Shown here piece by piece: positions 4,088 through 35,389 of a stretch of DNA of 64,000 bases (position 1 is the stretch's first letter; every line of letters starts with the position of its first letter). Origin of the DNA: Candidatus Doudnabacteria bacterium (GTDB lineage Bacteria; Patescibacteriota; Doudnabacteria; UBA920; 2-01-FULL-46-14); the NCBI GenBank assembly GCA_041497195.1, contig JBGQGB010000001.1:73904-137903 (forward strand), in the 5' to 3' direction. Below the pieces are notes generated by a model that was not told the origin of the DNA, did no database searches, and saw only the letters and a list, made by a program, of their open reading frames with translations. The translations under genes and the position numbers were made by a program.

Positions 4088-4879
4088 TCAGGTTGGGTGG
4101 ATAAACCACCCGCGTGCTTTAGCGTTGCGAAATCCTCTGACAAATAACCACAACCCAACACACAAATAAACCACATTCAAAAGAAAAATCGTTACCAAAT
4201 CTGCTGGGCTTGAAGGGCGCCCAAACACGATAATCGCCCGTAAACCCTCAAAAATATGGCTGATTGGCAAAAATTCCGCAATTCTTGCCAAAAAAGGTGG
4301 CAGAGTAGATAGTGGATAAAACACCCCGCTAATCGGATAAATAATGAGTATGAGCGACCAGGCGACTGCTTGGGCTTTTGTTCCAAAACGGAAAATCAAA
4401 GATGCGGTGAAATAGCCAAACGCCCAGCTAAACAAAAATATATTGAATATGTAAAAAAAGATTACAGTACCCACCTGGAAAATGCTGAAATGGAACACTC
4501 CCCAAGCGATGGCGAGAATAATCGCAATGATGACGCAAGCTTTAATCACGGAAATGAATAAGGACCCGAGGATGATCTCCGCGAGACGAAGCGGAGTAGA
4601 ATACAAATTGTACAAATTCCTACTCCACGCGTCGTCCAACACCGAAAAAGACATGTCCCGCTGAATATTATAAATCATCGTCCATAAAATGATTGCTCCA
4701 AGGATCGCGCCCGCGACGCCCGCCTGAACGTTCAGCTTGTTTATGTACACGGTCAAAAAACCGAACGTCAAAATATCAATCACCGGAAAAAAGAAAATAT
4801 CGGCCTTGCGGTCGAGACTCGCCCTGATTTCGTACAAATGCCGGAGCATATAAGCTCTGATGCGATGAAATTCGATCAT
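4088..4879 (-). CDS. ABC-2 type transporter permease
   Basis: Six predicted TM helices. Immediately downstream of the ABC ATPase with a 4-nt overlap. Confidence 0.6.
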   Translation of the reverse strand: MIEFHRIRAYMLRHLYEIRASLDRKADIFFFPVIDILTFGFLTVYINKLNVQAGVAGAILGAIILWTMIYNIQRDMSFSVLDDAWSRNLYNLYSTPLRLAEIILGSLFISVIKACVIIAIILAIAWGVFHFSIFQVGTVIFFYIFNIFLFSWAFGYFTASLIFRFGTKAQAVAWSLILIIYPISGVFYPLSTLPPFLARIAEFLPISHIFEGLRAIIVFGRPSSPADLVTIFLLNVVYLCVGLWLFVRGFRNAKARGWFIHPT

Positions 4880-5625
4880 TCTTCCACTTCTCCCCTGGCC
4901 AATTTAATAAAAACCTCTTCCATACTGGGCACGCGCAGAAACTTTTGTAAATTTTCTGGGCTGTCAATGCGATAAATCTGACCTTTGTCCAATAGGGCGA
5001 CTCGGTTGCACATCTGCTCGACCTCAGGCATGTTGTGCGAAGTCATCAAAATTGTCATTTGTCGTCTCTTCTGCAAATCGCGCAGGGTTTCGCGGACGAT
5101 TGCGGCAATAGATGGATCGAGGCTGGCGGTCGGTTCGTCCAAGAGCAGCAGCTCCGGATCGTTAATCAAGCTTTTGCAGAGATTGACTCTGGTCTTTTGA
5201 CCCGCGGAAAGTTCATCAAATCTTTCATTCCGCAAATGACTGATATCGAACTGCTCCAGTAGTTGTTCGATCTTTTTCTCATAATCAGCGACGCCGTACA
5301 TTAGCCCAAATATTTTCAAATTTTGATAGACGCTAAGGTTACTAGCCAAATCAGCGTAAGCAGTCGCGATATTCATCCGCGCTTTGATTTCTGATTCGTG
5401 AGCAAAAAAATTCTGCCCGAAAATTTTCACTTCCCCAGAGGTTGCCGTCAGTAGACCCATCAAAATATTGAGGGTGGTCGACTTGCCCGCTCCATTAACG
5501 CCCAAAATTCCGAAGATCTCCCCTTTCGCAACGGCAAAACTGATCCCCCGGAGCGCGACCACGGGATTTTTCTTCGCACTATAGACTTTCTCCAAATTTT
5601 TTACTTCGAGGATTGTTTCAGCCAT
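4876..5625 (-). CDS. ABC transporter ATP-binding protein
   Basis: Walker A GVNGAGKST, signature LSAGQKTRV, Walker B LLLLDEPTASLD. Start set at MAETILEVKNL. The long ORF extends to 5700. Confidence 0.85.
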   Translation of the reverse strand: MAETILEVKNLEKVYSAKKNPVVALRGISFAVAKGEIFGILGVNGAGKSTTLNILMGLLTATSGEVKIFGQNFFAHESEIKARMNIATAYADLASNLSVYQNLKIFGLMYGVADYEKKIEQLLEQFDISHLRNERFDELSAGQKTRVNLCKSLINDPELLLLDEPTASLDPSIAAIVRETLRDLQKRRQMTILMTSHNMPEVEQMCNRVALLDKGQIYRIDSPENLQKFLRVPSMEEVFIKLARGEVEE

Positions 5626-6322
5626 AAAGACGAAAATATTCGTACTTGAGCCACTCTTTGCCCAATTTTCCCGGCAGGCTATCAAAAATAGCACCTTCAT
5701 CCAATTGGGAGACGTGAAACCGGATCGTTTTTGCTTTAGTTGTGGAATTTATTTTAATTTTGAGATTTGGTTGCGCGTGGCGAATTTTATCCAGGGCGAT
5801 ATATTTCCCATATTTCCGGCGTTCACCCAAAAAACCTGGTGCTTTGGCCGCAATTTCCGGCGGGACGCAAAAACAACAAAATGGCACTTTTAATTTTTTC
5901 GCTACTTGGGCCGCAACCAAGCTGACAGCGATGTGATCCAAATGCCCCGAAATACCGTCTTTGTCAAAACTAAAAATGACGTCAGGACGATAGTTCCTGG
6001 CTATGCGTAGCAATTTCCCGAATAACTGCGCCTTGAACTTGTTTACCGACCCATCAGGCAAGCCAAGCAAATGCAGTTTTTTTACGTGTAGAAATTTAGC
6101 CGCTCTCTCAAGCTCTTTCCGCCGCAATGCCTTGACCTGCCGGACTGACAAGGGTCGCAGCAAATGTGAAGTCCCCCGCTCGCCCAAAGTGGCGCAGACT
6201 ATTACCGAGCTCCCGCCTGCCAAATAATTTTTGTACACTGTCCCCGCTGCGGCAAAACTTTCATCGTCCGGATGAGCAGTCAGAAACAAAAACTTTTTGC
6301 CGAAAATACTTTGTGCGTTCAT
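5618..6322 (-). CDS. PIG-L / LmbE family N-acetylglucosaminyl deacetylase
   Basis: AHPDDE motif near the N-terminus, later HxDH (GHLDHIAVS). Typical LmbE length. Confidence 0.75.
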   Translation of the reverse strand: MNAQSIFGKKFLFLTAHPDDESFAAAGTVYKNYLAGGSSVIVCATLGERGTSHLLRPLSVRQVKALRRKELERAAKFLHVKKLHLLGLPDGSVNKFKAQLFGKLLRIARNYRPDVIFSFDKDGISGHLDHIAVSLVAAQVAKKLKVPFCCFCVPPEIAAKAPGFLGERRKYGKYIALDKIRHAQPNLKIKINSTTKAKTIRFHVSQLDEGAIFDSLPGKLGKEWLKYEYFRLYG

Positions 6323-7905: not shown

Positions 7906-8919
7906 CTACTTCGCGGCCAGGATACTTCTCTTGTAAGCTTCTAAGTTCTCCAGCGCCACTCCGGTGCCTTTCGCCACGCATAGTTCAGGCTGATCAGCCA
8001 CATAGCACGGCACGCCAGTGGCTTGCGCGAGGAGCCGGTCAATGTTACGCAAATTCGCGCCCCCGCCCGTAAGCACCATGCCTTTATCGATGACATCAGA
8101 GCTTAATTCGGGAGGGGTTTCCTGCAGCACTGAGCGGACCGCTTGAACGATCTCCCGCAACGGTTCCTGAATCGCCTCCACCACTTCATTGGTTTTTACT
8201 CGAATGGTTTTCGGCAAACCCTGCACTAGATCCCGCCCGCGGATTTCCATTTCCATCTCATCCTCCAAGGGCAGCGCTGACCCAACCTCTATCTTGATCT
8301 CCTCGGCCGAACGATCGCCGATGGCGAGCCCGTGTTTCTTGCGAATGTAGTCCGCGATGGCAGCGTCCATTTTGTTGCCTGCTACGCGCACAGAAGTGGA
8401 CGTGACAATGCCGCCTAGGGACAAAACTGCAATATCAGTGGTGCCACCCCCAATATCGATGACTAGATTGCCGGACGGAGTGCTGATGTCAATGCCAGCT
8501 CCAATCGCCGCGGCCACAGTCTCCTTGATCACATACGCAGCCTTGGCGCCCACGCCCTGGGCCGCGTCTACCACGGCTCGTTTCTCCGTGGAAGTGATTC
8601 CCCCCGGCACTGAAATCAAGACCTCTGGCCGCAAAAACCAAATATTGCCTATCGCTTTGGTGATGAAATATTTCAGCATGGCTTCGGTCACCCGATAATC
8701 CGCGATCACCCCGTCCTTCATGGGGCGATGTGCCACGATTGTTTCCGGGGTCCGGCCGAGCATTTCCTTGGCCTCAGCACCCACAGCCAAGACTTTGTTG
8801 TCCTCGACGCTGATGGCGACCACAGTCGGCTCGTTGATGACTATCCCTTTGCCCGGCACGAATACCAGGGTATTGGCAGTCCCCAAATCAATTCCAACTT
8901 TTTTTACAAACCACGGCAT
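7906..8919 (-). CDS. mreB: Rod shape-determining protein MreB
   Basis: [11 protein letters not shown] phosphate-1 motif, actin-fold motifs, 337 aa. Confidence 0.9.
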
Positions 8920-20261: not shown

Positions 20262-21251
20262 TTATTGTTTCCGCCTCAAAACCTTTTTTACTGCCTTTAT
20301 TATTGCATCTTTGCCCATGCCGTATTTCTCGATTAGTTCCCAGGGCTGGCCGGATTCGCCGAACGTATCCGGCATGCCGACCCGCTCGACCGGCACTGGA
20401 TATTCTTCAGCCAGTATTTCCATGACCGCACTTCCGGCGCCCCCATTGATCTGATGTTCCTCGACAGTCACGACCGCCCCGCATTTCCTGGCAGCTTGCA
20501 CCAAAGTCTTGCGATCAATCGGCTTGATAGTATGATTATTTACAACCATTGCCTCAATTCCCTCTTTGGCCAAATCCTCGGCCGCCTGCAGCGCCTCGTA
20601 TACCAAAATTCCCGAGCCCACGATTGCCACGTCCGCGCCATCTCGAAAGACTTCGGCGCGGCCGAGCTTGAAGGGCGAATCTATCGTGGTAAACTGGGCA
20701 GTCTTCTCGCGGCCAAATCGGATATACGCTGGGCCTTTGACTTCTTCGGCAATCGCCACGGTCGCCTTTTTTGCTTCAACAGCATCACATGGCACAACAA
20801 CGACAAGATTTGGAAGCACTCTGGTTATCGCGATGTCTTCCAAAGCTTGGTGAGTAGCGCCGTCCGGCCCGACAGAAATGCCCGCATGAGCTCCGGCCAC
20901 TTTGACATTGGCTTTGGAATAGCACACTGCTACACGAAACTGATCCCAGTTGCGGCCAGGGTTGAAAGTCGCATAAGAAGAAACAAAAGCGATTTTCCCG
21001 GAGAGGGCGAGGCCCGCGGCAATACCCATCATATTCTGCTCCGCCACGCCAACCTGGATAAACCTTTTCGGAAATTTTTCCGCAAACCAATGCGCCCGCG
21101 TGGACTCCACCAAATCACCGGCCAAGACGACGATATTTGGATTGCGCTCGCCCAATTCCACGAGAGCCTTTCCATATCCATCCCGGCCCGCCACCATCTC
21201 GATGTCGGGTTTAAAAAGTTTTTTGCTAAGTTTGGCGTTGGGATTGATCAT
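20262..21251 (-). CDS. tkt: Transketolase, C-terminal (pyrimidine-binding) subunit of a split enzyme
   Basis: Pyrimidine-binding and C-terminal domains (VGVAEQNMMGIAAGLA), 329 aa. Confidence 0.85.
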   Translation of the reverse strand: MINPNAKLSKKLFKPDIEMVAGRDGYGKALVELGERNPNIVVLAGDLVESTRAHWFAEKFPKRFIQVGVAEQNMMGIAAGLALSGKIAFVSSYATFNPGRNWDQFRVAVCYSKANVKVAGAHAGISVGPDGATHQALEDIAITRVLPNLVVVVPCDAVEAKKATVAIAEEVKGPAYIRFGREKTAQFTTIDSPFKLGRAEVFRDGADVAIVGSGILVYEALQAAEDLAKEGIEAMVVNNHTIKPIDRKTLVQAARKCGAVVTVEEHQINGGAGSAVMEILAEEYPVPVERVGMPDTFGESGQPWELIEKYGMGKDAIIKAVKKVLRRKQ

Positions 21252-22453
21252 TTAGTGAATTTCAGAGTCGAAAGAATGGCGTCCTCTAGGTTACTTATAC
21301 CATCATTATTATAGCCGTATTTGTTGGACAATTCATTATCTTGGGACTGACCGAAAGTGATCTCATAGGCTTTGGATAGGGGCATTATGTAAGCATCAGC
21401 TACCGGTCCGCTCAAATCTCCGTATGCTGGAGGAATTGGCAAATTTCTCAACCTATACATTTCCCCTTGGCCAGTCAGGGGCTCGAGCAGGAAGCTCCCG
21501 GCTGTTTTCAAGATGTCATTGATATCTACATTCTTCGAAAACCACTGGTTTAGAGAAAGCTTTTCAGGATTTGGCACAACGTGAAGGTCAAGCGTGTCGT
21601 AGAAGTCCCCGCCTGGCTCAGATTTATACTCCACTGCAACATGCTTGTCGTTTGAAGAGGTATAATAAAATATAGTTTCAACTACCTTTTGCTCAACTCC
21701 GAGGGCTGGATATTTGAATTCAAATCCATATTCGCTATTTCTATAGGTTTTCCAAGTCGAGGTGTCATTCGAGGGGTTCGGTTCAATAAATTTGAACGTG
21801 GAGAGCACGTTCTCCAAGACTGGGTTGCCTTCCTGCGGGATCGGTAACGTTTCAAAGTATAACAAGGCCACGTTACCGTTTTTTAATCCGACAACTGCTA
21901 CCGCTTCCCCGTCACAGCCTTCACAAAAATCGTTTTTGAATACATACGCTTCGTTTCCTGGGGAAAATAGACTTATGCGTTTGTCAATATTTACTTTTTC
22001 CCTTATGCCATTGAGATTGTTGCTTAGCTGCAATACCGAACCTTTAACAGAAAAATTATTATAGTCCATGAGAACTCCGCCTCTTTCTGCACAATCATTA
22101 TAATCTTTTGACCTGGCGACAAACGCCATTTTTTTATAAGACGCGAAGTATCCAAAAATTGAGAAGCCTTTCAAGGTACAGTTTGGGTCGATGTATCCAC
22201 CAAGGCTAGCAACGGCAGTTTTTTCGAAAGTCACATCACCCCACGACGCCGGGTAATTGAATGAAAATCCATATTCGGCATTGGTGTAGGTCTTCAAATT
22301 TAAGGTTTGTTCGAGCTGGACATGCTTGTCTGGATAAGGAATATATACCCCGTCAAACGGCCAGTTTTGATAGGTATAGGCCCAGGTCAGATAACCGACG
22401 AGAAAAGCTGCTACCAGGGTGATACTGAACCAAACGGAAAAGCGAATCTTCAT
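21248..22453 (-). CDS. Membrane-anchored hypothetical protein, two YGFSFxYP-type repeat domains (paralog of 22450..23085)
   Basis: N-terminal 45 aa about 80% identical to the adjacent gene (MKIRFSVWFSITLVAAFLVGYLTWAYTYQNWPFDGVYIPYPDK). Two repeats, YGFSFNYPASW and YGFEFKYPAL. Confidence 0.5.
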   Translation of the reverse strand: MKIRFSVWFSITLVAAFLVGYLTWAYTYQNWPFDGVYIPYPDKHVQLEQTLNLKTYTNAEYGFSFNYPASWGDVTFEKTAVASLGGYIDPNCTLKGFSIFGYFASYKKMAFVARSKDYNDCAERGGVLMDYNNFSVKGSVLQLSNNLNGIREKVNIDKRISLFSPGNEAYVFKNDFCEGCDGEAVAVVGLKNGNVALLYFETLPIPQEGNPVLENVLSTFKFIEPNPSNDTSTWKTYRNSEYGFEFKYPALGVEQKVVETIFYYTSSNDKHVAVEYKSEPGGDFYDTLDLHVVPNPEKLSLNQWFSKNVDINDILKTAGSFLLEPLTGQGEMYRLRNLPIPPAYGDLSGPVADAYIMPLSKAYEITFGQSQDNELSNKYGYNNDGISNLEDAILSTLKFTK

Positions 22454-23085
22454 TTCGTAAATTTGAAAGAATTCAGAATCTGCGTCAGCTTGGACCAGAC
22501 TTTTATTTTGTCCACCTCCGTGACCGAGCCGGCAGTGTAATTCCCTATGTTTCCGGTGTGAATCGTCAGCATGATTTCAAAACACGTGTCGCCGCGCTCC
22601 CCTCGGTATACGCGCGATTCATAGAGATTGCCAGCCCCTGCGTCGCTCACCTTCACAAAAGTAAATGGATTTCCGCTGATTTGCACCTGCTTGGCATCCC
22701 CTGAGGGCGGCACAGTAAATTGGGAGGTGCAATTGAGCGGCGACAGTCTAGCGCTGTTGACCGTGAAAAGAGCCTCCACCAAATTGGTTTTGGGATAGAG
22801 CTCTCGCGGAAAACTGACTTGTGCAAGTTGAGCCACCACAGCGCCGTCAAAAAAAGTTATAGTCGGCTCTTCCAAAACCGAGGCTTCGGGATATTGGAAA
22901 GAAAAACCGTAGCCTTGGTCTGCATAAGTTTTCGTGGTGTCAAAAACGCGCGGCTTGTCCGGATATAGAATCAGTACAGTATCAAACGGCCAGTATTGAT
23001 AAGTATACGCCCAGGCCAGATAGCCGACGATGAACGCGGCTACCAGAATGACGCTGAACCACACGCTAAAACGAATATGCTTCAT
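22450..23085 (-). CDS. Membrane-anchored hypothetical protein, one YGFSFxYP-type domain (paralog)
   Basis: MKHIRFSVWFSVILVAAFIVGYLAWAYTYQYWPFDTVLILYPDK, then YGFSFQYPEASV. 4-nt overlap with the downstream paralog. Confidence 0.5.
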   Translation of the reverse strand: MKHIRFSVWFSVILVAAFIVGYLAWAYTYQYWPFDTVLILYPDKPRVFDTTKTYADQGYGFSFQYPEASVLEEPTITFFDGAVVAQLAQVSFPRELYPKTNLVEALFTVNSARLSPLNCTSQFTVPPSGDAKQVQISGNPFTFVKVSDAGAGNLYESRVYRGERGDTCFEIMLTIHTGNIGNYTAGSVTEVDKIKVWSKLTQILNSFKFTK

Positions 23086-29486: not shown

Positions 29487-29569
29487 AACTTACTCAACAT
29501 TATAACAAAATAATGCTAAAAAATCAAAAAACGCCCCGGTGCCTAAACAAAGGACGTTTTTTGAGAAAT

Positions 29570-29908
29570 CTAACGCTTGGTAGTACTCAGTTGTTTCTTG
29601 ATAGCGACCCAGTGGCCTTTCAATTCTCGCAATGCCTGGCGAAACTCCCGACTGTCGACATGTTTGAGGGCCTCCAAGTGGGCGTCAAAATCTCCGGCCA
29701 ATTTAGCGTACGTCTTGGCTTGCGCGGCCTGCAACCTATGAGCCGTTTTTTTGATCTGCAGACCGACTTTTTTGGCGCCGCTACTGATTTTGGCGCGATT
29801 TTTCTCGCCGCGTTTACCGGTCAAATAATACGCCCCGGCCACGGCTGCTGCCGCGGCAGCAGCTATCCCTAATTTGAGGCCAGACTTCGATTTTTTTTGC
29901 TTGGCCAT
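29570..29908 (-). CDS. YtxH-like protein
   Basis: Ala/Gly-rich N-terminal helix followed by KRGEKNRAK, as in the YtxH family. 112 aa. Confidence 0.4.
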   Translation of the reverse strand: MAKQKKSKSGLKLGIAAAAAAAVAGAYYLTGKRGEKNRAKISSGAKKVGLQIKKTAHRLQAAQAKTYAKLAGDFDAHLEALKHVDSREFRQALRELKGHWVAIKKQLSTTKR

Positions 29909-29927
29909 ATGTTCGTTTGGGTTAAGG

Positions 29928-30197
29928 TTACTTGGACTTGGAATCGCGGGAAAAAATCTTCTTGCCGAATTTCACCAGCGGCTTCAGCTTGACGCCCTCT
30001 TTGCGGATCTCGTCTCTCAAATCGTCCATGTCCTGAGCGATGGCCTCGGTCTCGTCTTTGACTTTGCGTGAAATGCCTTTGAGGTCTTTGAGGATAGCGG
30101 CGACATAAGCCAAAATAATCGCAAACAACACGGAAATGACAATGACCGCGATCGTGGTGACAAAAAAGAAAATGTCCGCGTGGATGAGTTCGTTCAC
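29928..30197 (-). CDS. DUF948-like small membrane protein
   Basis: N-terminal TM helix plus a charged coiled coil. Adjacent to a YtxH-like gene, which is a common pairing. Confidence 0.4.
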   Translation of the reverse strand: MNELIHADIFFFVTTIAVIVISVLFAIILAYVAAILKDLKGISRKVKDETEAIAQDMDDLRDEIRKEGVKLKPLVKFGKKIFSRDSKSK

Positions 30198-30231
30198 ACA
30201 TTTATTCTAGCATACTTTCGCCCCCAAAGCC

Positions 30232-30909
30232 TTACTCCCGTGGCCCGCCATGATGGACGTGGCCGGGAAGATAATGATCCAGGCGCGAAGGCAAAATGTA
30301 ATAGATTGGCACCAGCGCGTAGATGACGAGGCTGATGTAGGGGTGCCACAAGCTCGCGAGGATTGCCATGACGTAAAGCGCGGGGGCCAAAAGCATCTGG
30401 AACCGGGCCAGACGCTGCAGGTCAGCGGGCAGGATTTCACCACCCATCACCAGCTTGTGCCGCAGAGCGTATTCCCAATTGGCATACAAAGCTATTCCGG
30501 CGATGATAAGATTGAGCCCATAAATGCCGATAGCGAGTTTGAGATGCGAGTAATGCCCCAGCAACGCGGCGGAAAAAGGAATAAAGCTGATGAATAAATA
30601 AAAGAAAATATTGATCCATAACGACGGCCGGTTGGAGCGGACAATGTAATGAAACTGGAGCCGATGGCCGGTCCAAAAAATCCCCAGAATCACGAAACTC
30701 AAAAAGAAGCTCACGAAATTGGGCCACAGTCCTTGCAAAGCGGACCACAGCGCCCGGCTGTTCACGGCACCCGTGAGCTGGGGCACGACCAGGTTCAAAA
30801 CCAGTAAAGTCATGACAATCGCAAAAATCCCATCCCCTAAAGTCTCGATCCGGTTGGTATCGAGATCGCGCTGAGAATTGTACTCAAAGTTTGGGTTTTG
30901 TTCAGGCAT
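30232..30909 (-). CDS. TMEM175 / DUF1211-family putative K+ channel
   Basis: RIETLGDGIFAIVMTLLVL matches the RxExFSDGVFAIAITLLVL signature of helix 1. Six TM helices. Confidence 0.65.
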   Translation of the reverse strand: MPEQNPNFEYNSQRDLDTNRIETLGDGIFAIVMTLLVLNLVVPQLTGAVNSRALWSALQGLWPNFVSFFLSFVILGIFWTGHRLQFHYIVRSNRPSLWINIFFYLFISFIPFSAALLGHYSHLKLAIGIYGLNLIIAGIALYANWEYALRHKLVMGGEILPADLQRLARFQMLLAPALYVMAILASLWHPYISLVIYALVPIYYILPSRLDHYLPGHVHHGGPRE

Positions 30910-30957
30910 AAACGCTCGATAAGTGCCCTAAAATCAAACCTGCTGTCCTCACTATAC

Positions 30958-30985
30958 CAAAAAATCGGCGGCAAGCCGATTTTTT
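30958..30985. terminator. Bidirectional intrinsic terminator
   Basis: aaaaaATCGGCggcaaGCCGATttttt: a 6-7 bp stem flanked by an A-run and a T-run, between two minus-strand genes. Confidence 0.55.
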
Positions 30986-31017
30986 GAAAGTAAACCCGAG
31001 AATAACTAAGCAATAAT

Positions 31018-31683
31018 TTACTTGCACTGCAGGGCGGCCAGACACTGCGCTCTCTGATCTGCAGCGACATTGTTGCAAGCAGCGCACTGCAAAGCCTTCA
31101 TATCCTGCGGCGAGGGCGGCGGGCTGCCCGGTGTGGGTGCTGGTGGCGTGCCCTGCGGCATCATGCTGGCGGTGTCAGTGAAGTTCACTCCGGCCGGCAA
31201 GTTGAATTTGGCAGAATCAACCGACCAGGAGGAGCACTTGTAATCCAGCTTACGGTTCGCATCCGCGGCCGCTGAATTCTGAGTGGCACCGCCCTGGCCC
31301 GTGGACATAATCACCTTGTAGCCAGTGCTCTGTCCCTCCATCCAGGTGTAAGCCGTGGTTCCATCGCTGATCATATGAGATGAGACATTCGTGCCATTGG
31401 CATTAGCCATGAAATCCCCGCGCATTTTCCCGCCCCCCACGTAAATGGTGCCGTTTGTAACCGCACCGCTGGTATCGTCAGCAAAAGTACACTGCTGGCT
31501 TTTCCCGGCCGCAAATAGGTCTGTGATGGACTGCGGCCCTGCAGTCTGGCTTTGCGGAGTCTGCGTGTTTGTGTTAGTGCCTGTCCCCGGAGCTTGCGCT
31601 GTTTGCGTGCGGGACTTGAGGGAGAAATAGCCGCCGACTATGACCAGAATAGCGACTAGTACCCAAGCGAGCTTTTTGTTCAT
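31018..31683 (-). CDS. Secreted hypothetical protein with Cys-rich C-terminus
   Basis: Signal/TM helix, Thr/Gln-rich linker, C-terminal CAACNNVAADQRAQCLAALQCK. Confidence 0.4.
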   Translation of the reverse strand: MNKKLAWVLVAILVIVGGYFSLKSRTQTAQAPGTGTNTNTQTPQSQTAGPQSITDLFAAGKSQQCTFADDTSGAVTNGTIYVGGGKMRGDFMANANGTNVSSHMISDGTTAYTWMEGQSTGYKVIMSTGQGGATQNSAAADANRKLDYKCSSWSVDSAKFNLPAGVNFTDTASMMPQGTPPAPTPGSPPPSPQDMKALQCAACNNVAADQRAQCLAALQCK

Positions 31684-31843
31684 AATTTGTGTCTCTAAAA
31701 ATTAATATTACTTTGTCCTCATCATATCGCTTTCCGGCTTTTCTGGGAAGTCAGTTTTCCCTATTGCTTGCGCAGGCTCTCCCACAACCCCAGGAGATTG
31801 CCTTCACTATCCTCAAAATAGGCAGTATAACCCATGTCCCCGA

Positions 31844-32575
31844 CTAATTATTTGAAGTAGCTTTTTCCGCAGGGTAAGTCCCGTCAAAATACAACTGGCC
31901 CTCCGAAAAGGTCAGGGAATGGATGGAAAAATTCGGCACTGACGCGATCCAGTCCTCTAGAAACTTCCCGCCCGCGGCCTGGGCCTCACTGCTGAAAAAC
32001 GAGGCAGGGACCGAGACTTTGCCTACGATGGCCTGCTGCAAATTTAGCTGTACGTGATTGTCAGTCACTGAGGCGACCCCACGCAAATAAATAGGCGGAT
32101 CAGAGGGAAGGTATTTCAAATAATCCTGTATCCTGGAAAGTTCTCCGGCAGGAAGGTTTTTCGCTTGGGCGAATCCTAGGAGATGGTCTTTATGCAAAAT
32201 CGCGGAGAGCTCTACCAAACCGTCATTGCTGATCTTCACCTGCGCGTCTGAGAGCGGAAAATATTTCCACTTGCCAGCATTGAGATTGGCCGTCAGCTCA
32301 CTTTCGGTAAAATCATGCTTGATGGCGACCTGGCTGGAAAACTTCAGACTCTGTGCTGGCGCCAAACCGGCCGGCAGATCGTCAACCTTCACCCCAGTCT
32401 TAGCGCGAAAACTCTCAAGATCAGCAGACGTATAGGCAACTCCGAGGTCGCGCGGCTTGTCTGAGCCAAACAGGGAGGACAGGCCTGGGACAAAACCGAG
32501 GTAGCCCAAGATGAGCAGGACAACCACTGCCAAAAATATAATTATTTTGAAAATAAATTTGAGAGATTTGAACAT
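31844..32575 (-). CDS. Membrane-anchored hypothetical protein
   Basis: N-terminal TM helix and a 200-aa extracytoplasmic region with no motif I recognise. Confidence 0.4.
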   Translation of the reverse strand: MFKSLKFIFKIIIFLAVVVLLILGYLGFVPGLSSLFGSDKPRDLGVAYTSADLESFRAKTGVKVDDLPAGLAPAQSLKFSSQVAIKHDFTESELTANLNAGKWKYFPLSDAQVKISNDGLVELSAILHKDHLLGFAQAKNLPAGELSRIQDYLKYLPSDPPIYLRGVASVTDNHVQLNLQQAIVGKVSVPASFFSSEAQAAGGKFLEDWIASVPNFSIHSLTFSEGQLYFDGTYPAEKATSNN

Positions 32576-32664
32576 TGAATTTTTTTAATAATGAAAGTGC
32601 GTCTTTATCATAAAGCGTTAGAGCAATTTACAAATGCGAGAGGGCGAAACAAATCAAGTAAAAT

Positions 32665-33063
32665 TTATTTCGCCCCCATGTCCCCACTGAAATTCCAACC
32701 TGCTTCGGTCAGGTAGACTCTCTTCTGAGGTCCCTCCTGATTACCTATTTCGACCAGACCCATATCTGCCATGACTAAGATATACACGTCCAGAGGCACG
32801 TCCTGAAAGATCTCACGTAGCCGCTGAATAGGAGCGGCAAGGCCTTCCTGGATGAGTTGATCAGCAATCAGCTCCATCGACTTCAGAGCCACGTCTGCAA
32901 GCCTCCTCGATCCGCGCAAATACTCTCGGCAGTTTTCGCAACGCAGCAGGTGTTTTCCCAGTGCTCGTCGGTCTGACTCGGTCAGCTCATCATAATAACA
33001 TTCCGAGATGAGCGAGCATAACCGCGACCGGGCCGCCTGACCACCAGTCTTTTGCCTGTTCAT
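32665..33063 (-). CDS. zf-HC2 (ZAS-type) zinc-finger protein with a C-terminal wHTH-like segment
   Basis: CSLISECYYDELTESDRRALGKHLLRCENCREYL fits the ZAS anti-sigma zinc-binding pattern (C...H...CxxC). No TM helix. C-terminal RVYLTEAGW is MarR-like. Confidence 0.45.
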   Translation of the reverse strand: MNRQKTGGQAARSRLCSLISECYYDELTESDRRALGKHLLRCENCREYLRGSRRLADVALKSMELIADQLIQEGLAAPIQRLREIFQDVPLDVYILVMADMGLVEIGNQEGPQKRVYLTEAGWNFSGDMGAK

Positions 33064-33164
33064 GTCCCCTCCTTGGCAAATCTCATCTTACCATTGGTCC
33101 GCCATCTGTCCAGTCAATAAACTTGGAAAAAAACATATTTGAATTTGCAGCTGTCGCTCTTTTT

Positions 33165-33317
33165 TTATTCCTCAGATTTAGTTTTGACCTCGGAGTGCTC
33201 ACCGTCATCACAATTGCACTCTAGAAGGGGCTGGCCTTGGAGCGAGCATCCTTCGGTGTCGCAATTTTTCGGGTGATCTGCTACCCCGCCGCAAGCCGGA
33301 CAAACGTAGTGAGTCAT
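33165..33317 (-). CDS. Possible small Cys-rich (zinc-ribbon-like) protein, 50 aa
   Basis: My translation gives MTHYVCPACGGVADHPKNCDTEGCSLQGQPLLECNCDDGEHSEVKTKSEE. It is below the ORF-track size cutoff and has no clear Shine-Dalgarno. Confidence 0.25.
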   Translation of the reverse strand: MTHYVCPACGGVADHPKNCDTEGCSLQGQPLLECNCDDGEHSEVKTKSEE

Positions 33318-33386
33318 GGGAGTTTAAAAATTTAATTGTTTCTATAATTCATTTTACTCCCTTTGCTCTCCCCTTCCAAACCGCTT

Positions 33387-33449
33387 TCACATTTGCGTCG
33401 GGATCACAGGCCTATTTGAGGTGATGGCAATCGCGTGCTCGGTGCGATT
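33387..33449 (-). pseudogene. map: Relic copy of the methionine aminopeptidase 3' end
   Basis: Reverse translation gives NRTEHAIAITSNRPVIPTQM*, versus the real map C-terminus FEHTIALTQNGPVILTV* at 34051... The DNA is about 67% identical over about 46 nt to 34062..34107. No upstream ORF is attached. Confidence 0.5.
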
Positions 33450-33459
33450 CCAGGGAGTC

Positions 33460-33488
33460 TTGACATTTTTTATATTGTCCCTTACAAT
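33460..33488 (+). promoter_or_regulatory. Near-consensus sigma70 promoter, antisense to the NYN gene
   Basis: TTGACA (33460-33465), a 17-nt spacer, then TACAAT (33483-33488). It is on the strand opposite to all neighbouring genes. Confidence 0.55.
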
Positions 33489-33494
33489 ATAGTC

Positions 33495-33557
33495 GAATCA
33501 TGACGAAAAAGCACTTCTTTGGGTTCCGTCCCTCAGCGGTGCTTTTTCATTTTGTAT
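33495..33557 (+). ncRNA. Predicted short promoter-driven transcript ending in a hairpin, cis-antisense to the 3' end of the NYN gene
   Basis: About 7 nt downstream of the -10 element. A 10-bp stem (gaaaaagcac 33505-33514 with gtgctttttc 33539-33548), a 24-nt loop, then ATTTTG. It overlaps the last 8 codons and the stop of the NYN gene on the other strand. An in-frame 41-codon ORF exists but looks non-coding. Confidence 0.35.
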
Positions 33558-34036
33558 TCCAGTCGATTTCTCAAGTTATTCAAAAAATCGATTTTATCTC
33601 GAGCGGACCTTTTCAGCAGAATTGAACACTTCTCCTTGTTTGGACTAATGACTTTTTCCAACTTTTTATTTTTATGCAAATACTCAACTAGAGAATAAAA
33701 ATCCCCGTCACTGGTGACGATCACGGCCTTGTGGTAATTGGGACAATCAAGCATCGCGCGCAACACCAAATCCGCGTCCACATTTCCTTTGACTAGCCCG
33801 TCTCTCGGTTTTAACACCGGTTTGAAAACCAGAACATAACCAGTCTCCTGCAGAAACTGATAGAGTGTCTGATTCTCCGGCATATAGCCTATGAATAAAT
33901 AAGCCTTGGTAACGGCGTATTTTTCTGACAGGTACACTCTGAATCTGGCATAACTCAGCTTCCAACCGAGAGACTGAACTCCGAGGTTGAGGTTTTGGCT
34001 ATCGATAAATGCGTAATTTTGTTCCTTTTTTTTCAT
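33533..34036 (-). CDS. NYN-domain (LabA-like, PIN-related) putative ribonuclease
   Basis: AFIDSQNL (N-terminal Asp) and VIVTSDGDF acidic motifs typical of NYN/LabA. 167 aa. Starts 14 nt after the map stop. Confidence 0.7.
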   Translation of the reverse strand: MKKKEQNYAFIDSQNLNLGVQSLGWKLSYARFRVYLSEKYAVTKAYLFIGYMPENQTLYQFLQETGYVLVFKPVLKPRDGLVKGNVDADLVLRAMLDCPNYHKAVIVTSDGDFYSLVEYLHKNKKLEKVISPNKEKCSILLKRSARDKIDFLNNLRNRLEYKMKKHR

Positions 34037-34050
34037 GACTGAAAAGCTTA

Positions 34051-34815
34051 CTAGACAGTGAGGATCACGGGTCCGTTTTGGGTGAGCGCGATGGTGTGCT
34101 CGAAATGCGCGGCCAGAGAGCCGTCCGCAGTGGCCACAGTCCAGCGGTCAAGCAAAAATTTTACCTGGTACGAGCCTGTGGTAAACATGGGCTCTATAGC
34201 CAGAACCATGCCGACCTTGAGTCGCGGCATCGAACCGGCGCGGCCGTAATTGGGCACGTTCGGCATTTCGTGGATCGCGTGCCCAACGCCGTGCCCGACC
34301 AGATCGCGGATTATCCCAAAACCAGCCTCGTCCGCCACTTTCTGGATGGCCGCGGCAATATCGCCGATGGTATGGCCTGGAACAGCCTGCTCGATCCCCT
34401 TCTCGAGCGCCAGCTCGGTGGTCGCGATTAGCTTGTGAGCGTCGCTGCTGACCGTGCCCACTGGCACGGTGATAGCTGCGTCTGTGTAGAGGCCCTGGTA
34501 TTTGATACCAAAATCCAGGCCGATGATATCGCCGTCTTTGAGTACCCTGGTCCGGCTTGGGATTCCATGGACCACCTCGTCGTTTATGGAGGTACACAAA
34601 ACCGCCGGATAGGGCGGTCCATCGGGTACGATTTTGTACCCTTCAAAAGCGCTAGTAGCGCCGGCTTTTTTTATTTCCTCCCGGGCCAGCTCGTCGAGTT
34701 CCCGGGTCGTGATTCCAGGTCGGACTCGTTTGGCCACAAGGCTCAGTATGGCCGCCAAAATCTTGCCCCCTTCTCGGAGTGTTTCGATTTCTTTTGCTGT
34801 TTTAACGAGGCTCAT
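34051..34815 (-). CDS. map: Methionine aminopeptidase, type I
   Basis: Pita-bread-fold metal ligands (D, D, H, E, E pattern), 254 aa. It is the last gene of the ribosomal superoperon. Confidence 0.9.
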   Translation of the reverse strand: MSLVKTAKEIETLREGGKILAAILSLVAKRVRPGITTRELDELAREEIKKAGATSAFEGYKIVPDGPPYPAVLCTSINDEVVHGIPSRTRVLKDGDIIGLDFGIKYQGLYTDAAITVPVGTVSSDAHKLIATTELALEKGIEQAVPGHTIGDIAAAIQKVADEAGFGIIRDLVGHGVGHAIHEMPNVPNYGRAGSMPRLKVGMVLAIEPMFTTGSYQVKFLLDRWTVATADGSLAAHFEHTIALTQNGPVILTV

Positions 34816-35389
34816 TTTCCTCCTCCGGAATATTCAACCACTTCTGGAAGGCCGCAATTATACTTTCAATGACCTGCTCCAAGCTATTAGCTGCAGTATC
34901 AACGACTAAGTCAAATTGCGTTTTATCGGTAACATCTATGCCGTACAAGCTGCGGTACCGCTCTTGCTCGCTTCTGACTCGTTTAAACGTGTTCTTCTGA
35001 ACTTCTTCGATTGACGCTCCAGCTTGGCTGGTTCTCCCTTCTTTCTGAATCTGCGCAAACGTCCGCTCAGCCGCTGTTCTGGGGTCAAGATCCAAAAAAA
35101 CTTTGAACGAATTTGGTATCCAGTGGTAAGCCGTGCGCGAATCGACCACGAGATGGTCCTGCTCCTTCCCTATTTTCTGCAGAAGCTGGTCGACTGCGTC
35201 ATCAATTTCTTTTTGTTTTTCAGCGAGAAAATTGAGTTGTTCCACAGTGACGCCCCTGTCTGCGGCCATTTTCCTGAACAAGTCGCCAGATGAAAAATGC
35301 TCGTATCCCAGTTTATTGGCAAGCACTTTTGCGGTGCTAGATTTTCCGCTACCCGGAAGCCCGGTAACGGTGATGATATGTTTTTTCAT
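34802..35389 (-). CDS. cmk: Cytidylate (CMP) kinase, archaeal-type P-loop kinase
   Basis: ITVTGLPGSGKSSTAKVLANKLGYEHFSSGDLFR is the same pattern as archaeal CMP kinases. Located between adk and map, as in archaea and CPR. Confidence 0.65.
   Translation of the reverse strand: MKKHIITVTGLPGSGKSSTAKVLANKLGYEHFSSGDLFRKMAADRGVTVEQLNFLAEKQKEIDDAVDQLLQKIGKEQDHLVVDSRTAYHWIPNSFKVFLDLDPRTAAERTFAQIQKEGRTSQAGASIEEVQKNTFKRVRSEQERYRSLYGIDVTDKTQFDLVVDTAANSLEQVIESIIAAFQKWLNIPEEENEPR

Follow-up and report, generated by a model that had tools for sequence, protein, structure and literature searches.

The 64,000-nt window analysed here, part of a contig of a Candidatus Doudnabacteria bacterium (JBGQGB010000001.1), carries a compact cassette at the 3' end of map, the gene for type I methionine aminopeptidase (MAP). 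The cassette, which spans about 0.58 kb (about 33454-34036), consists of an NYN gene for a predicted nuclease and a predicted gene of about 60 nt for a small RNA (sRNA), and on its far side lies a decayed second copy of the map 3' end. This NYN-sRNA unit has been inserted here and belongs to a type of cassette that has spread horizontally in the Candidate Phyla Radiation (CPR, or Patescibacteria), a group that makes up a large share of bacterial diversity, has tiny genomes and is almost untouched experimentally. The relic is most likely a target duplication, and the unit most likely an inserted selfish or defence-type nuclease-plus-RNA module. Taken as a whole, an insertion at the map 3' end, with nuclease and sRNA acting in a manner akin to toxin-antitoxin (TA), addiction or defence systems and with host recombination as the route of entry, is put forward as the probable explanation.

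The working map gene (34051-34815, minus strand) is an intact open reading frame (ORF), its product matches Pfam Peptidase_M24 (7e-46) and its C-terminus reads ...FEHTIALTQNGPVILTV. The sequence 0.66 kb beyond its true end (33387-33453, minus strand) translates as ...TEHAIAITSNRPVIPTQM up to a stop codon, in a frame without a start codon, and was recovered by DNA and protein alignment, by profile and by repeat search. The other, functional repeat copy (34037-34116, minus strand; global alignment and repeat search) comprises the last ~66 nt of map and ~14 nt past the stop. Both copies start at CTGG (34116 and 33453) and end ~14 nt beyond their stops, the homology of the relic perhaps continuing ~15 nt beyond its stop, to 33372. 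The initial annotation of this DNA had described a second, degenerate map 3' end at 33387 that lacked an upstream reading frame; both points were confirmed, with the repeat extending further than stated there, and the alignment it had proposed as a check proved significant. Segments 34116-34037 and 33453-33372 share 54/74 identities, with a global score reached by 0/5000 shuffles, and the local DNA alignment of relic and map end scored 30 (shuffles 18.4 +/- 2.2, 1/2000 reaching 30). A repeat search returned 41 nt at 73% identity with a spacing of 661. The protein-level score of relic and map end was 49 (cross-locus null 25.2 +/- 4.5, maximum 42), and with a MAP C-terminus profile made from 84 relatives the relic came second of the 2223 fragments that six-frame translation of the window gave, behind map itself (E 0.059; next fragment 7.6). 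It was also the best case of a gene tail repeated downstream among the 81 genes of the window.

The motif N.PVI is common to map and relic and absent from 84/84 relatives, which points to both copies having come from this lineage; the relic would thus derive from the map of this lineage, or from one closely related to it, and not from a distant donor, and an in-place duplication would fit the pair as well as the replacement 3' end that the initial annotation had the element supply. Decay of the relic shows in G to R and L to P changes at highly conserved positions of NGPVILT. Differences between relic and map fall 5:3:8 by codon position (hand count), a distribution that is not significant and does not discriminate neutral decay from divergence under selection.

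The NYN gene (LabA-like, PIN-fold; 33533-34036, minus strand; Pfam PF01936 and structure model) encodes a protein of 167 aa, and its ATG lies 14 nt past the map stop, as had been noted initially. The protein matches PF01936 over residues 10-146 (E 1.8e-14, 54.9 bits against a cut-off of 24.2), the search that the initial annotation had suggested, with a domain-level match to the NYN model of PADLOC (6e-8) and no match in NCBIfam. The best Foldseek match of its AlphaFold2 model (predicted local distance difference test, pLDDT, 86) in the Protein Data Bank is 2QIP (template modelling score 0.73, E 3e-9), followed by the NYN domain of MARF1 (5YAA), and a profile search also matched 2QIP (4.7e-12). 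Six residues of catalytic type (D12, N15, N85, D87, D110, D112) do not vary across 27 homologues, and model and alignment together indicate an alpha/beta fold of the PIN-like kind in which the acidic metal-binding residues are conserved. The gene has no promoter of its own inside the cassette and is therefore presumably transcribed from the map operon. Its homologues number more than 6400, the best 120 of which, from Berkelbacteria, Kuenenbacteria and other Patescibacteria, share 65-75% identity with it. DNA nucleases occur among PIN-fold enzymes. According to PMC5499597, the NYN/LabA family has no assigned molecular function, its wider membership had by then not been tested as nucleases, and bacterial NYN genes have been tied to tRNA and rRNA processing by gene neighbourhood.

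The second conserved component faces the NYN gene from the opposite strand. A sigma-70-type promoter, TTGACA-17-TACAAT (33460-33488, plus strand; 11/12 positions in a promoter scan), which the initial annotation had already recognised as opposing the NYN gene, is part of the conserved cassette and is predicted to drive a structured sRNA (33494-33556, plus strand; promoter, fold and covariance model) that converges with the NYN gene and is antisense to its 3' end. The predicted RNA, whose ends were taken from the -10 box and the U-run, is composed of an 11-nt leader, a hairpin and the U-run, and the conserved hairpin and U-run (33505-33548, plus strand; inverted repeat, fold and covariation) would form its terminator and body. 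The hairpin folds at -21.9 kcal/mol (z -4.3) and overlaps the last five NYN codons and the NYN 3' untranslated region.

Conserved DNA reading GAAAAAGCACCGC-yyrr-GGACGAAACC-yyrr-GAGGTGCTTTTTC is present 3' of almost every NYN gene, and next to this hairpin DNA stands TTGACA-17-TGnTATAAT on the opposite strand. Promoter and hairpin are present in 69/69 aligned cassettes, the -35 box (GTCAA invariant) and a TGnTATAAT-like -10 box being conserved throughout. With the hairpin specified by hand before the controls were run, 11/17 of its pairs show compensatory changes (105 cells; shuffles gave 34 +/- 4 and slid controls 7-27). Run on all 141 columns of the alignment, RNAalifold predicted no structure. 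Among the non-Watson-Crick cells, 6 are G·U on the NYN strand and 111 are A·C there, equivalent to G·U on the promoter strand, an asymmetry that points to selection of the hairpin in the transcript from the conserved promoter. The hairpin nucleotides AAAAAGCACCGC are kept whether translated or not, and are untranslated where the NYN ORF stops earlier. A covariance model of the element (R1) has a single match in the window (78.5 bits, 33442-33549), zero matches in 902 kb of non-NYN loci and about one per NYN gene in 80 NYN loci, while Rfam 15 gave chance-level matches only (E at least 0.24, far below gathering scores). Second, weaker matches to the sRNA model occur in L114, L151 and L156. Complementarity of 13/15 between the 5' part of the sRNA (33498-33512, plus strand) and the NYN start codon with its 11 preceding nt (34033-34047, plus strand) is confined to the window; it is the strongest outlier of 69 loci and may be chance or local adaptation. 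A 41-aa ORF on the RNA strand (33500-33625) was considered as a peptide toxin and rejected, its start codon not being conserved in other cassettes.

The initial annotation had recommended a search for the same cassette elsewhere, and it was found in unrelated CPR contexts among the 80 NYN loci from metagenomes (L092-L171) that served as the comparison set. The cassette spans about 565-720 nt across loci, and on its left side nothing is conserved beyond about codon 7 of NYN. Its surroundings vary, with map adjoining none of the 80 loci and the 247 neighbouring ORFs falling into 215 clusters without conserved synteny; upstream neighbours are co-directional with NYN in 58/69 cases. Neighbours include restriction-modification (R-M), Fic, GIY-YIG, reverse transcriptase and other NYN paralogues. 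Other small genes of a selfish or defence type are frequent beside the cassettes. By sequence appearance, a four-helix-bundle '23S rRNA IVS' protein, GIY-YIG proteins, a reverse transcriptase and Fic stand beside cassettes at L125 (1557-1886), L142/L143, L134 (54-1010) and L129/L170, and the type I R-M methylase next to the L129 cassette is Pfam-supported. A phage origin was rejected, with 2 matches among 2.9 million viral contigs versus at least 591 in metagenome contigs.

Direct repeats surround NYN at 18/78 loci at z > 8, about 12 of them clean. Among the clean cases the first repeat stops 0-30 nt short of the ATG (up to ~140 nt in a few loci) and the second begins a little way past the -35 box; over the repeat-bearing loci as a whole the distance to the ATG is likewise 0-30 nt in most and reaches ~250 nt in a few. 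The repeats are 30-243 bp long and 76-99% identical. They cover the 3' ends of gyrB (L119, 117/119), aspS (L165), hsdM (L129) and a GLUG protein gene (L095), and the 5' ends or upstream regions of aspS (L167), priA (L093) and alaS (L157), while some lie in intergenic DNA. An empty site is provided by L174, in which GyrB is 90% identical to that of L119 and the order is pheT-gyrB-secE (4487-4720). In L119 (4880-8465) gyrB and secE are separated by 3.4 kb made up of two nested units that each end in a gyrB 3' relic, the inner being the NYN cassette and the outer a 486-aa ORF with an M19 peptidase. The outer relic shares a TAG stop and a CAG codon with L174, the working copy ending in TGA, and character counts among the gyrB copies of L119 and L174 are about equal in all three directions. 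The two L119 relics lie at 5606-5724 and about 8419-8465, the outer apparently with an internal deletion, with junctions within ~17 nt.

Multiple copies also occur. L168 (4520-6630) has a 1039-bp unit of two 50-aa ORFs, NYN and sRNA in tandem duplication (511/512 identical), and L150 and L156 have extra, more divergent NYN paralogues beside the cassette. Two TTGTCAA boxes ~230 nt apart in hairpin-rich DNA 3' of NYN in L098 (2651-2980) suggest either what is left of a second cassette or insertions nested in one another. The right edge of the cassette carries a 9-mer of the DnaA-box consensus (TTATCCACA or, as complement, TGTGGATAA, with one mismatch allowed) in 28/70 cases, against an expected 0.009 per locus, within 40 nt beyond the -35 box and in either orientation (e.g. 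L119 5581-5589, L157 1214-1222). This 9-mer could regulate the sRNA promoter or mark the element end; the window has at this position (33446-33454) only the degenerate CCTGGAATC.

A map relic is also present in the closest relative, L172, where the well-preserved sequence FEHTVAITENGHLVLTR with its stop codon lies 650 nt after map (5417-5467). The L172 insert (within 4766-5470) is similar in length to that of the window, ~0.6 kb, and contains no R1 element; a search for a decayed NYN gene within it found none (best hidden Markov model E 0.5). Its cargo consists of ORFs of 77 and 63 aa of unknown family and a GC-rich hairpin cluster (5030-5180), and the final codons of its relic (GTA TTG ACA) give the next gene a TTGACA -35 box. 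Each relic is nearest to its own map, with 67% identity in the window and 75% in L172, against 58% between relics (48 nt, compared by hand). None of the other loci among 85 map loci has a map relic, no significant third, older relic was found in front of htrA, and the NYN cassette is absent from map in all six clade relatives.

These comparisons suggest how the locus was formed. A cassette of ~0.58 kb has been inserted at the map 3' end, with the 66-80 nt spanning the insertion point now doubled; the upstream repeat copy keeps map intact, and the downstream copy is most likely an untranslated relic that later decayed. The initial proposal that NYN is foreign cargo flanked by a map 3'-end repeat gains support from the target repeats at about 12-18/78 other loci and the one empty site. 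Its view of this arrangement as a signature of 3'-end integration stands as regards foreign cargo within a direct repeat and falls as regards the 3' end, since repeats at 5' ends, in intergenic DNA and around non-NYN cargo indicate no special 3'-end mechanism and do not prove that NYN is what drives the movement. Entry would have been by host recombination of imported DNA rather than by a cassette-encoded enzyme, either with one end homologous and the other illegitimate or by a single crossover that takes in a circle, and next to the essential genes of compact genomes duplications would be what survives selection. Host recombination is the more likely route because identical scars flank unrelated cargo, namely at map in L172 and around the second unit at gyrB in L119, and because the targets are diverse.

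Within the inserted cassette, the sRNA would restrain the nuclease via the 3' end of the NYN mRNA or by binding the protein, the latter being conceivable because the RNA also occurs in tandem orientation. The combination of a compact nuclease with a strongly promoted sRNA, the defence-type neighbours and the domain-level PADLOC match point towards a toxin/antidote or abortive-defence role, to which slightly less than an even chance is given. The minimal selfish or addiction-type module of the initial annotation fits these data, and its failure to place the module in any described TA or defence family is borne out by the database searches above; no published description of this cassette was found in open-access papers and bioRxiv.

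Several observations weigh against this explanation. The 48 invariant columns in 27 NYN sequences are unusually many for a toxin and would also suit a housekeeping RNase. The map junctions of the window and of L172 are no more than ~3 nt apart, suggesting a site preference or one ancestral event, and no empty site with the same downstream gene was found for the window, all 11-12 contigs of the organism being identical (100%); among possible sources of an empty map site, GTDB representatives are at most 57% identical and entries in a large protein database at most 66%. In two related loci out of the 80 (L123, 1079-1191; L146, 5481-5595) the sRNA gene and its promoter lie in tandem on the NYN strand, NYN being intact, which implies that simple cis-antisense control is not the whole story. 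Complementarity between sRNA and NYN start is no feature of the family (same-locus 5.46 versus cross-locus 5.36, p 0.19). Finally, the cassette has sharp, recurring edges, at the ATG on the left and at the -35 box or the DnaA-box-like 9-mer on the right, and these edges, together with repeats in about one fifth of loci, exceed what random illegitimate recombination would give and hint at a dedicated insertion mechanism.

The edges, how often repeats occur, the closeness of the two map junctions and the DnaA-box 9-mer keep an insertion mechanism encoded by the element in consideration, at a low probability. NYN would then be a mobility enzyme, either a homing-endonuclease-like mobile ORF or a transposition-type staggered cutter, possibly working with the sRNA, that at gene ends either brings along a replacement end resistant to cleavage or produces a long duplication of its target. 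Such an enzyme would accord with the DNA nucleases among PIN-fold proteins, with relics that in two lineages begin, to within ~3 nt, at AHFEHT, the best conserved motif of MAP, with the stop and codon shared by the outermost L119 relic and the empty-site relative, and with an architecture identical to that of fungal mitochondrial mobile ORFs (mORFs; PMC3630166). It is nevertheless judged unlikely. NYNs that are 60-75% identical have unrelated targets (map, gyrB, aspS and hsdM at their 3' ends, aspS, alaS and priA at their 5' ends, and intergenic DNA), which does not fit site-specific homing; cargo without NYN bears the same scars; and young repeats are near-identical including the junction, as in L119, so that a site-specific cutter would re-cut its own host. 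Terminal inverted repeats are also lacking in the window copy, and NYN is not known as a homing-endonuclease family. That the cassette represents a new class of autonomous CPR mobile element, in which a PIN-fold nuclease and its own sRNA nick or cut DNA and insert with long variable duplications, possibly on a DnaA cue, is considered more doubtful still; if true, it would mean a previously unknown mechanism of homing or transposition and a new nuclease family for it.

The strong conservation of the NYN protein could also reflect a domesticated CPR housekeeping pair, for example an RNase of rRNA or tRNA processing or of mRNA decay and its regulatory RNA, with the relic as a by-product of local rearrangement where the operon end is prone to recombination. 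The position of NYN close to and co-directional with housekeeping genes, the neighbourhood link to tRNA and rRNA processing (PMC5499597) and the fact that the region after map differs in all six close relatives would suit such a pair. The complete lack of conserved synteny, target duplications that abut the cassette edges, an empty site in a 90%-identical GyrB background, tandem or multiple copies (L168, L150, L156) and the absence of the cassette from this locus in six clade relatives speak against it and make it improbable, to the same degree as a mobility enzyme. The near-coincident junctions, the different cargo in inserts of similar length and the nested successive insertions at a single gene end in L119 could also be explained by an old relic, formed by one insertion in the ancestor of the window and L172 and followed by cargo turnover and gene conversion, NYN having landed in an existing gap. 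Against this, each relic resembles its own map more than the other relic, a relic is missing from four further members of the clade, L173 and L179 among them, and the window relic starts at the usual right edge (~12 nt past the -35 box) with copy 1 ending at the NYN ATG, as at other loci; among the explanations weighed here it is the one given least credence. A diversity-generating retroelement, with template and variable repeat at a gene's 3' end, was rejected because a reverse transcriptase is missing and because repeats were seen at 5' ends and between genes as well.

In the window, map is the final gene of the ribosomal-protein/secY/adk/cmk operon, the order, all on the minus strand, being rplO, secY, adk, an archaeal-type cmk, map, the 167-aa NYN ORF and small lineage-specific ORFs. 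Its product is 60-66% identical to Doudnabacteria-like MAPs, the nearest map found being 66% identical. The (d)CMP kinase gene (34802-35389, minus strand) lies between adk and map, overlaps map by 14 nt and matches TIGR02173 above cut-off (113 bits); relatives have the same cmk or a second adk-like gene at this position. The initial annotation had reported that the continuation from infA to rplQ is missing after map and had taken this as a sign of rearrangement. The absence itself is upheld, since infA was not found anywhere in the 64-kb window and no ribosomal gene occurs among the genes checked 3' of map (22.4-33.3 kb; rpmJ-rplQ were not searched by name). The rearrangement is not, because infA is absent downstream of map in 17/18 CPR-labelled map loci and the operon ends at map in all six closest relatives, making the absence a lineage trait; the relatives with map directly before infA or rpmJ that had been envisaged are thus not to be found among these six.

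The genes after map differ in each of the six relatives, the space 3' of map being a variable hotspot in the clade with six different contents. L179, with a map of 63% identity, has the gene order of the window to either side, and its htrA-ruvX-x-galT starts 33 nt past map; relative to it, the window has 4.6 kb extra (29487-34050), with the NYN cassette and relic at the map-proximal edge. The rest of this extra DNA holds a Cys-rich ORF of 50 aa, genes for a zf-HC2 protein resembling anti-sigma factors, for two unknown proteins and for a K+ channel of the TMEM175 type, and two small ORFs. Elsewhere in the window (21248-23085, minus strand), adjacent genes for proteins of 401 aa (PsbP_2-like) and 211 aa share a near-identical N-terminal hydrophobic segment of ~27 aa (IRFSVWFS...AYTYQ) and resemble a tandem paralogue or a 5'-end duplication.

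A 0.6-kb module of nuclease and sRNA that exists in thousands of copies and can occupy the ends of essential genes while leaving them unbroken would be among the smallest selfish or defence units known, and through it the widespread LabA-like NYN family gains a concrete, testable partner RNA. The scars at gene ends, namely map relics in two lineages and nested gyrB relics, show cargo uptake by compact genomes at essential genes; they can mislead gene callers and single-gene phylogenies, as in fungal mitochondria, and may serve as datable insertion markers in uncultured lineages. The family-level picture of a widespread cassette with long target duplications is of more interest than a one-off event would be.

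Among known systems, the best structural analogue is the mORFs with carboxy-terminal duplication of fungal mitochondria, described for atp6 of Allomyces and for atp6, atp9, cox2 and nad3 of Glomus, in which gene core, inserted C-terminus, endonuclease ORF and relic of the native C-terminus follow one another and the copies are 64-81% identical (PMC3630166). Here too an intact gene with a working C-terminus is followed by a nuclease ORF and a silent C-terminus duplicate (about 67-73% identical), essential genes are hit near their ends, and the C-terminal duplicate lies downstream of the ORF in the window, L119, L165, L129 and L095. The cassette differs in having NYN instead of LAGLIDADG or GIY-YIG (NYN was the only domain detected in the cassette ORF, with no homing-endonuclease family domain), in its place on a bacterial chromosome, in its extra sRNA gene and in having repeats also at 5' ends, in intergenic DNA and around non-NYN cargo. 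Close NYN cassettes occupy many unrelated sites rather than one conserved target per endonuclease lineage, and a foreign working C-terminus would here be no more than a possibility, both copies sharing the lineage-specific N.PVI.

Other insertion processes match in part. Like islands that integrases place at the 3' ends of tRNA and protein genes, the cassette is foreign DNA bracketed by a 3'-end direct repeat that leaves the gene intact; unlike them, it has variable repeats (30-243 bp), many unrelated sites and a cargo of 0.6 kb, and no integrase or recombinase is present in the 0.58-kb cassette, which holds NYN and the RNA only, or as a domain in flanking ORFs. Features of a transposon are likewise missing, there being no transposase, no terminal inverted repeats in the window copy and duplications of no fixed length. 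Homology-facilitated illegitimate recombination or single-crossover insertion-duplication (PMC3240628, for the concept) likewise sets foreign DNA beside a homologous anchor, needs no enzyme from the element and would explain scars around unrelated cargo, but the known process usually yields deletions, not duplications, and leaves the sharp cassette edges and the first arrival at a new locus unexplained.

As regards the module itself, its layout comes closest to the type I loci with convergent RNAs or the type III pairs of TA systems, and it fails the defining features of both. Type I systems with convergent RNAs and a bidirectional terminator include par/Fst RNAI-RNAII, bsrG/SR4 and txpA/RatA, and type I pairs with nuclease toxins include SymE/SymR and RalR/RalA. 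As in these, a strongly promoted small RNA opposes a protein gene and overlaps its 3' end through a terminator hairpin, which covers the last five NYN codons and would make the RNA an antisense RNA as judged from sequence, and the conserved apical loop UUUCGU contains a YUNR-type UUCG. The protein, however, is a predicted soluble nuclease of 167 aa and not a small (<60 aa) hydrophobic or membrane peptide, and antisense overlap is not required, as the tandem RNA genes of L123 and L146 indicate. The type III systems ToxIN, CptIN and TenpIN likewise pair an endoribonuclease-type protein with an adjacent small structured RNA, and neutralisation of the protein by RNA would explain an RNA that works in either orientation. 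Those systems have tandem antitoxin repeats upstream, whereas here a single RNA gene with its own promoter and a single hairpin lies downstream of NYN, only 14 nt separate map and NYN, and the fold is unrelated to ToxN. With LabA-like NYN proteins in general (PF01936, COG1432; 2QIP) the nuclease shares domain, fold and conserved acidic residues, and it differs from the wider family as a tightly conserved CPR subgroup of 160-180 aa, without OST-HTH, that is mobile and almost always has the sRNA gene 3' of it.

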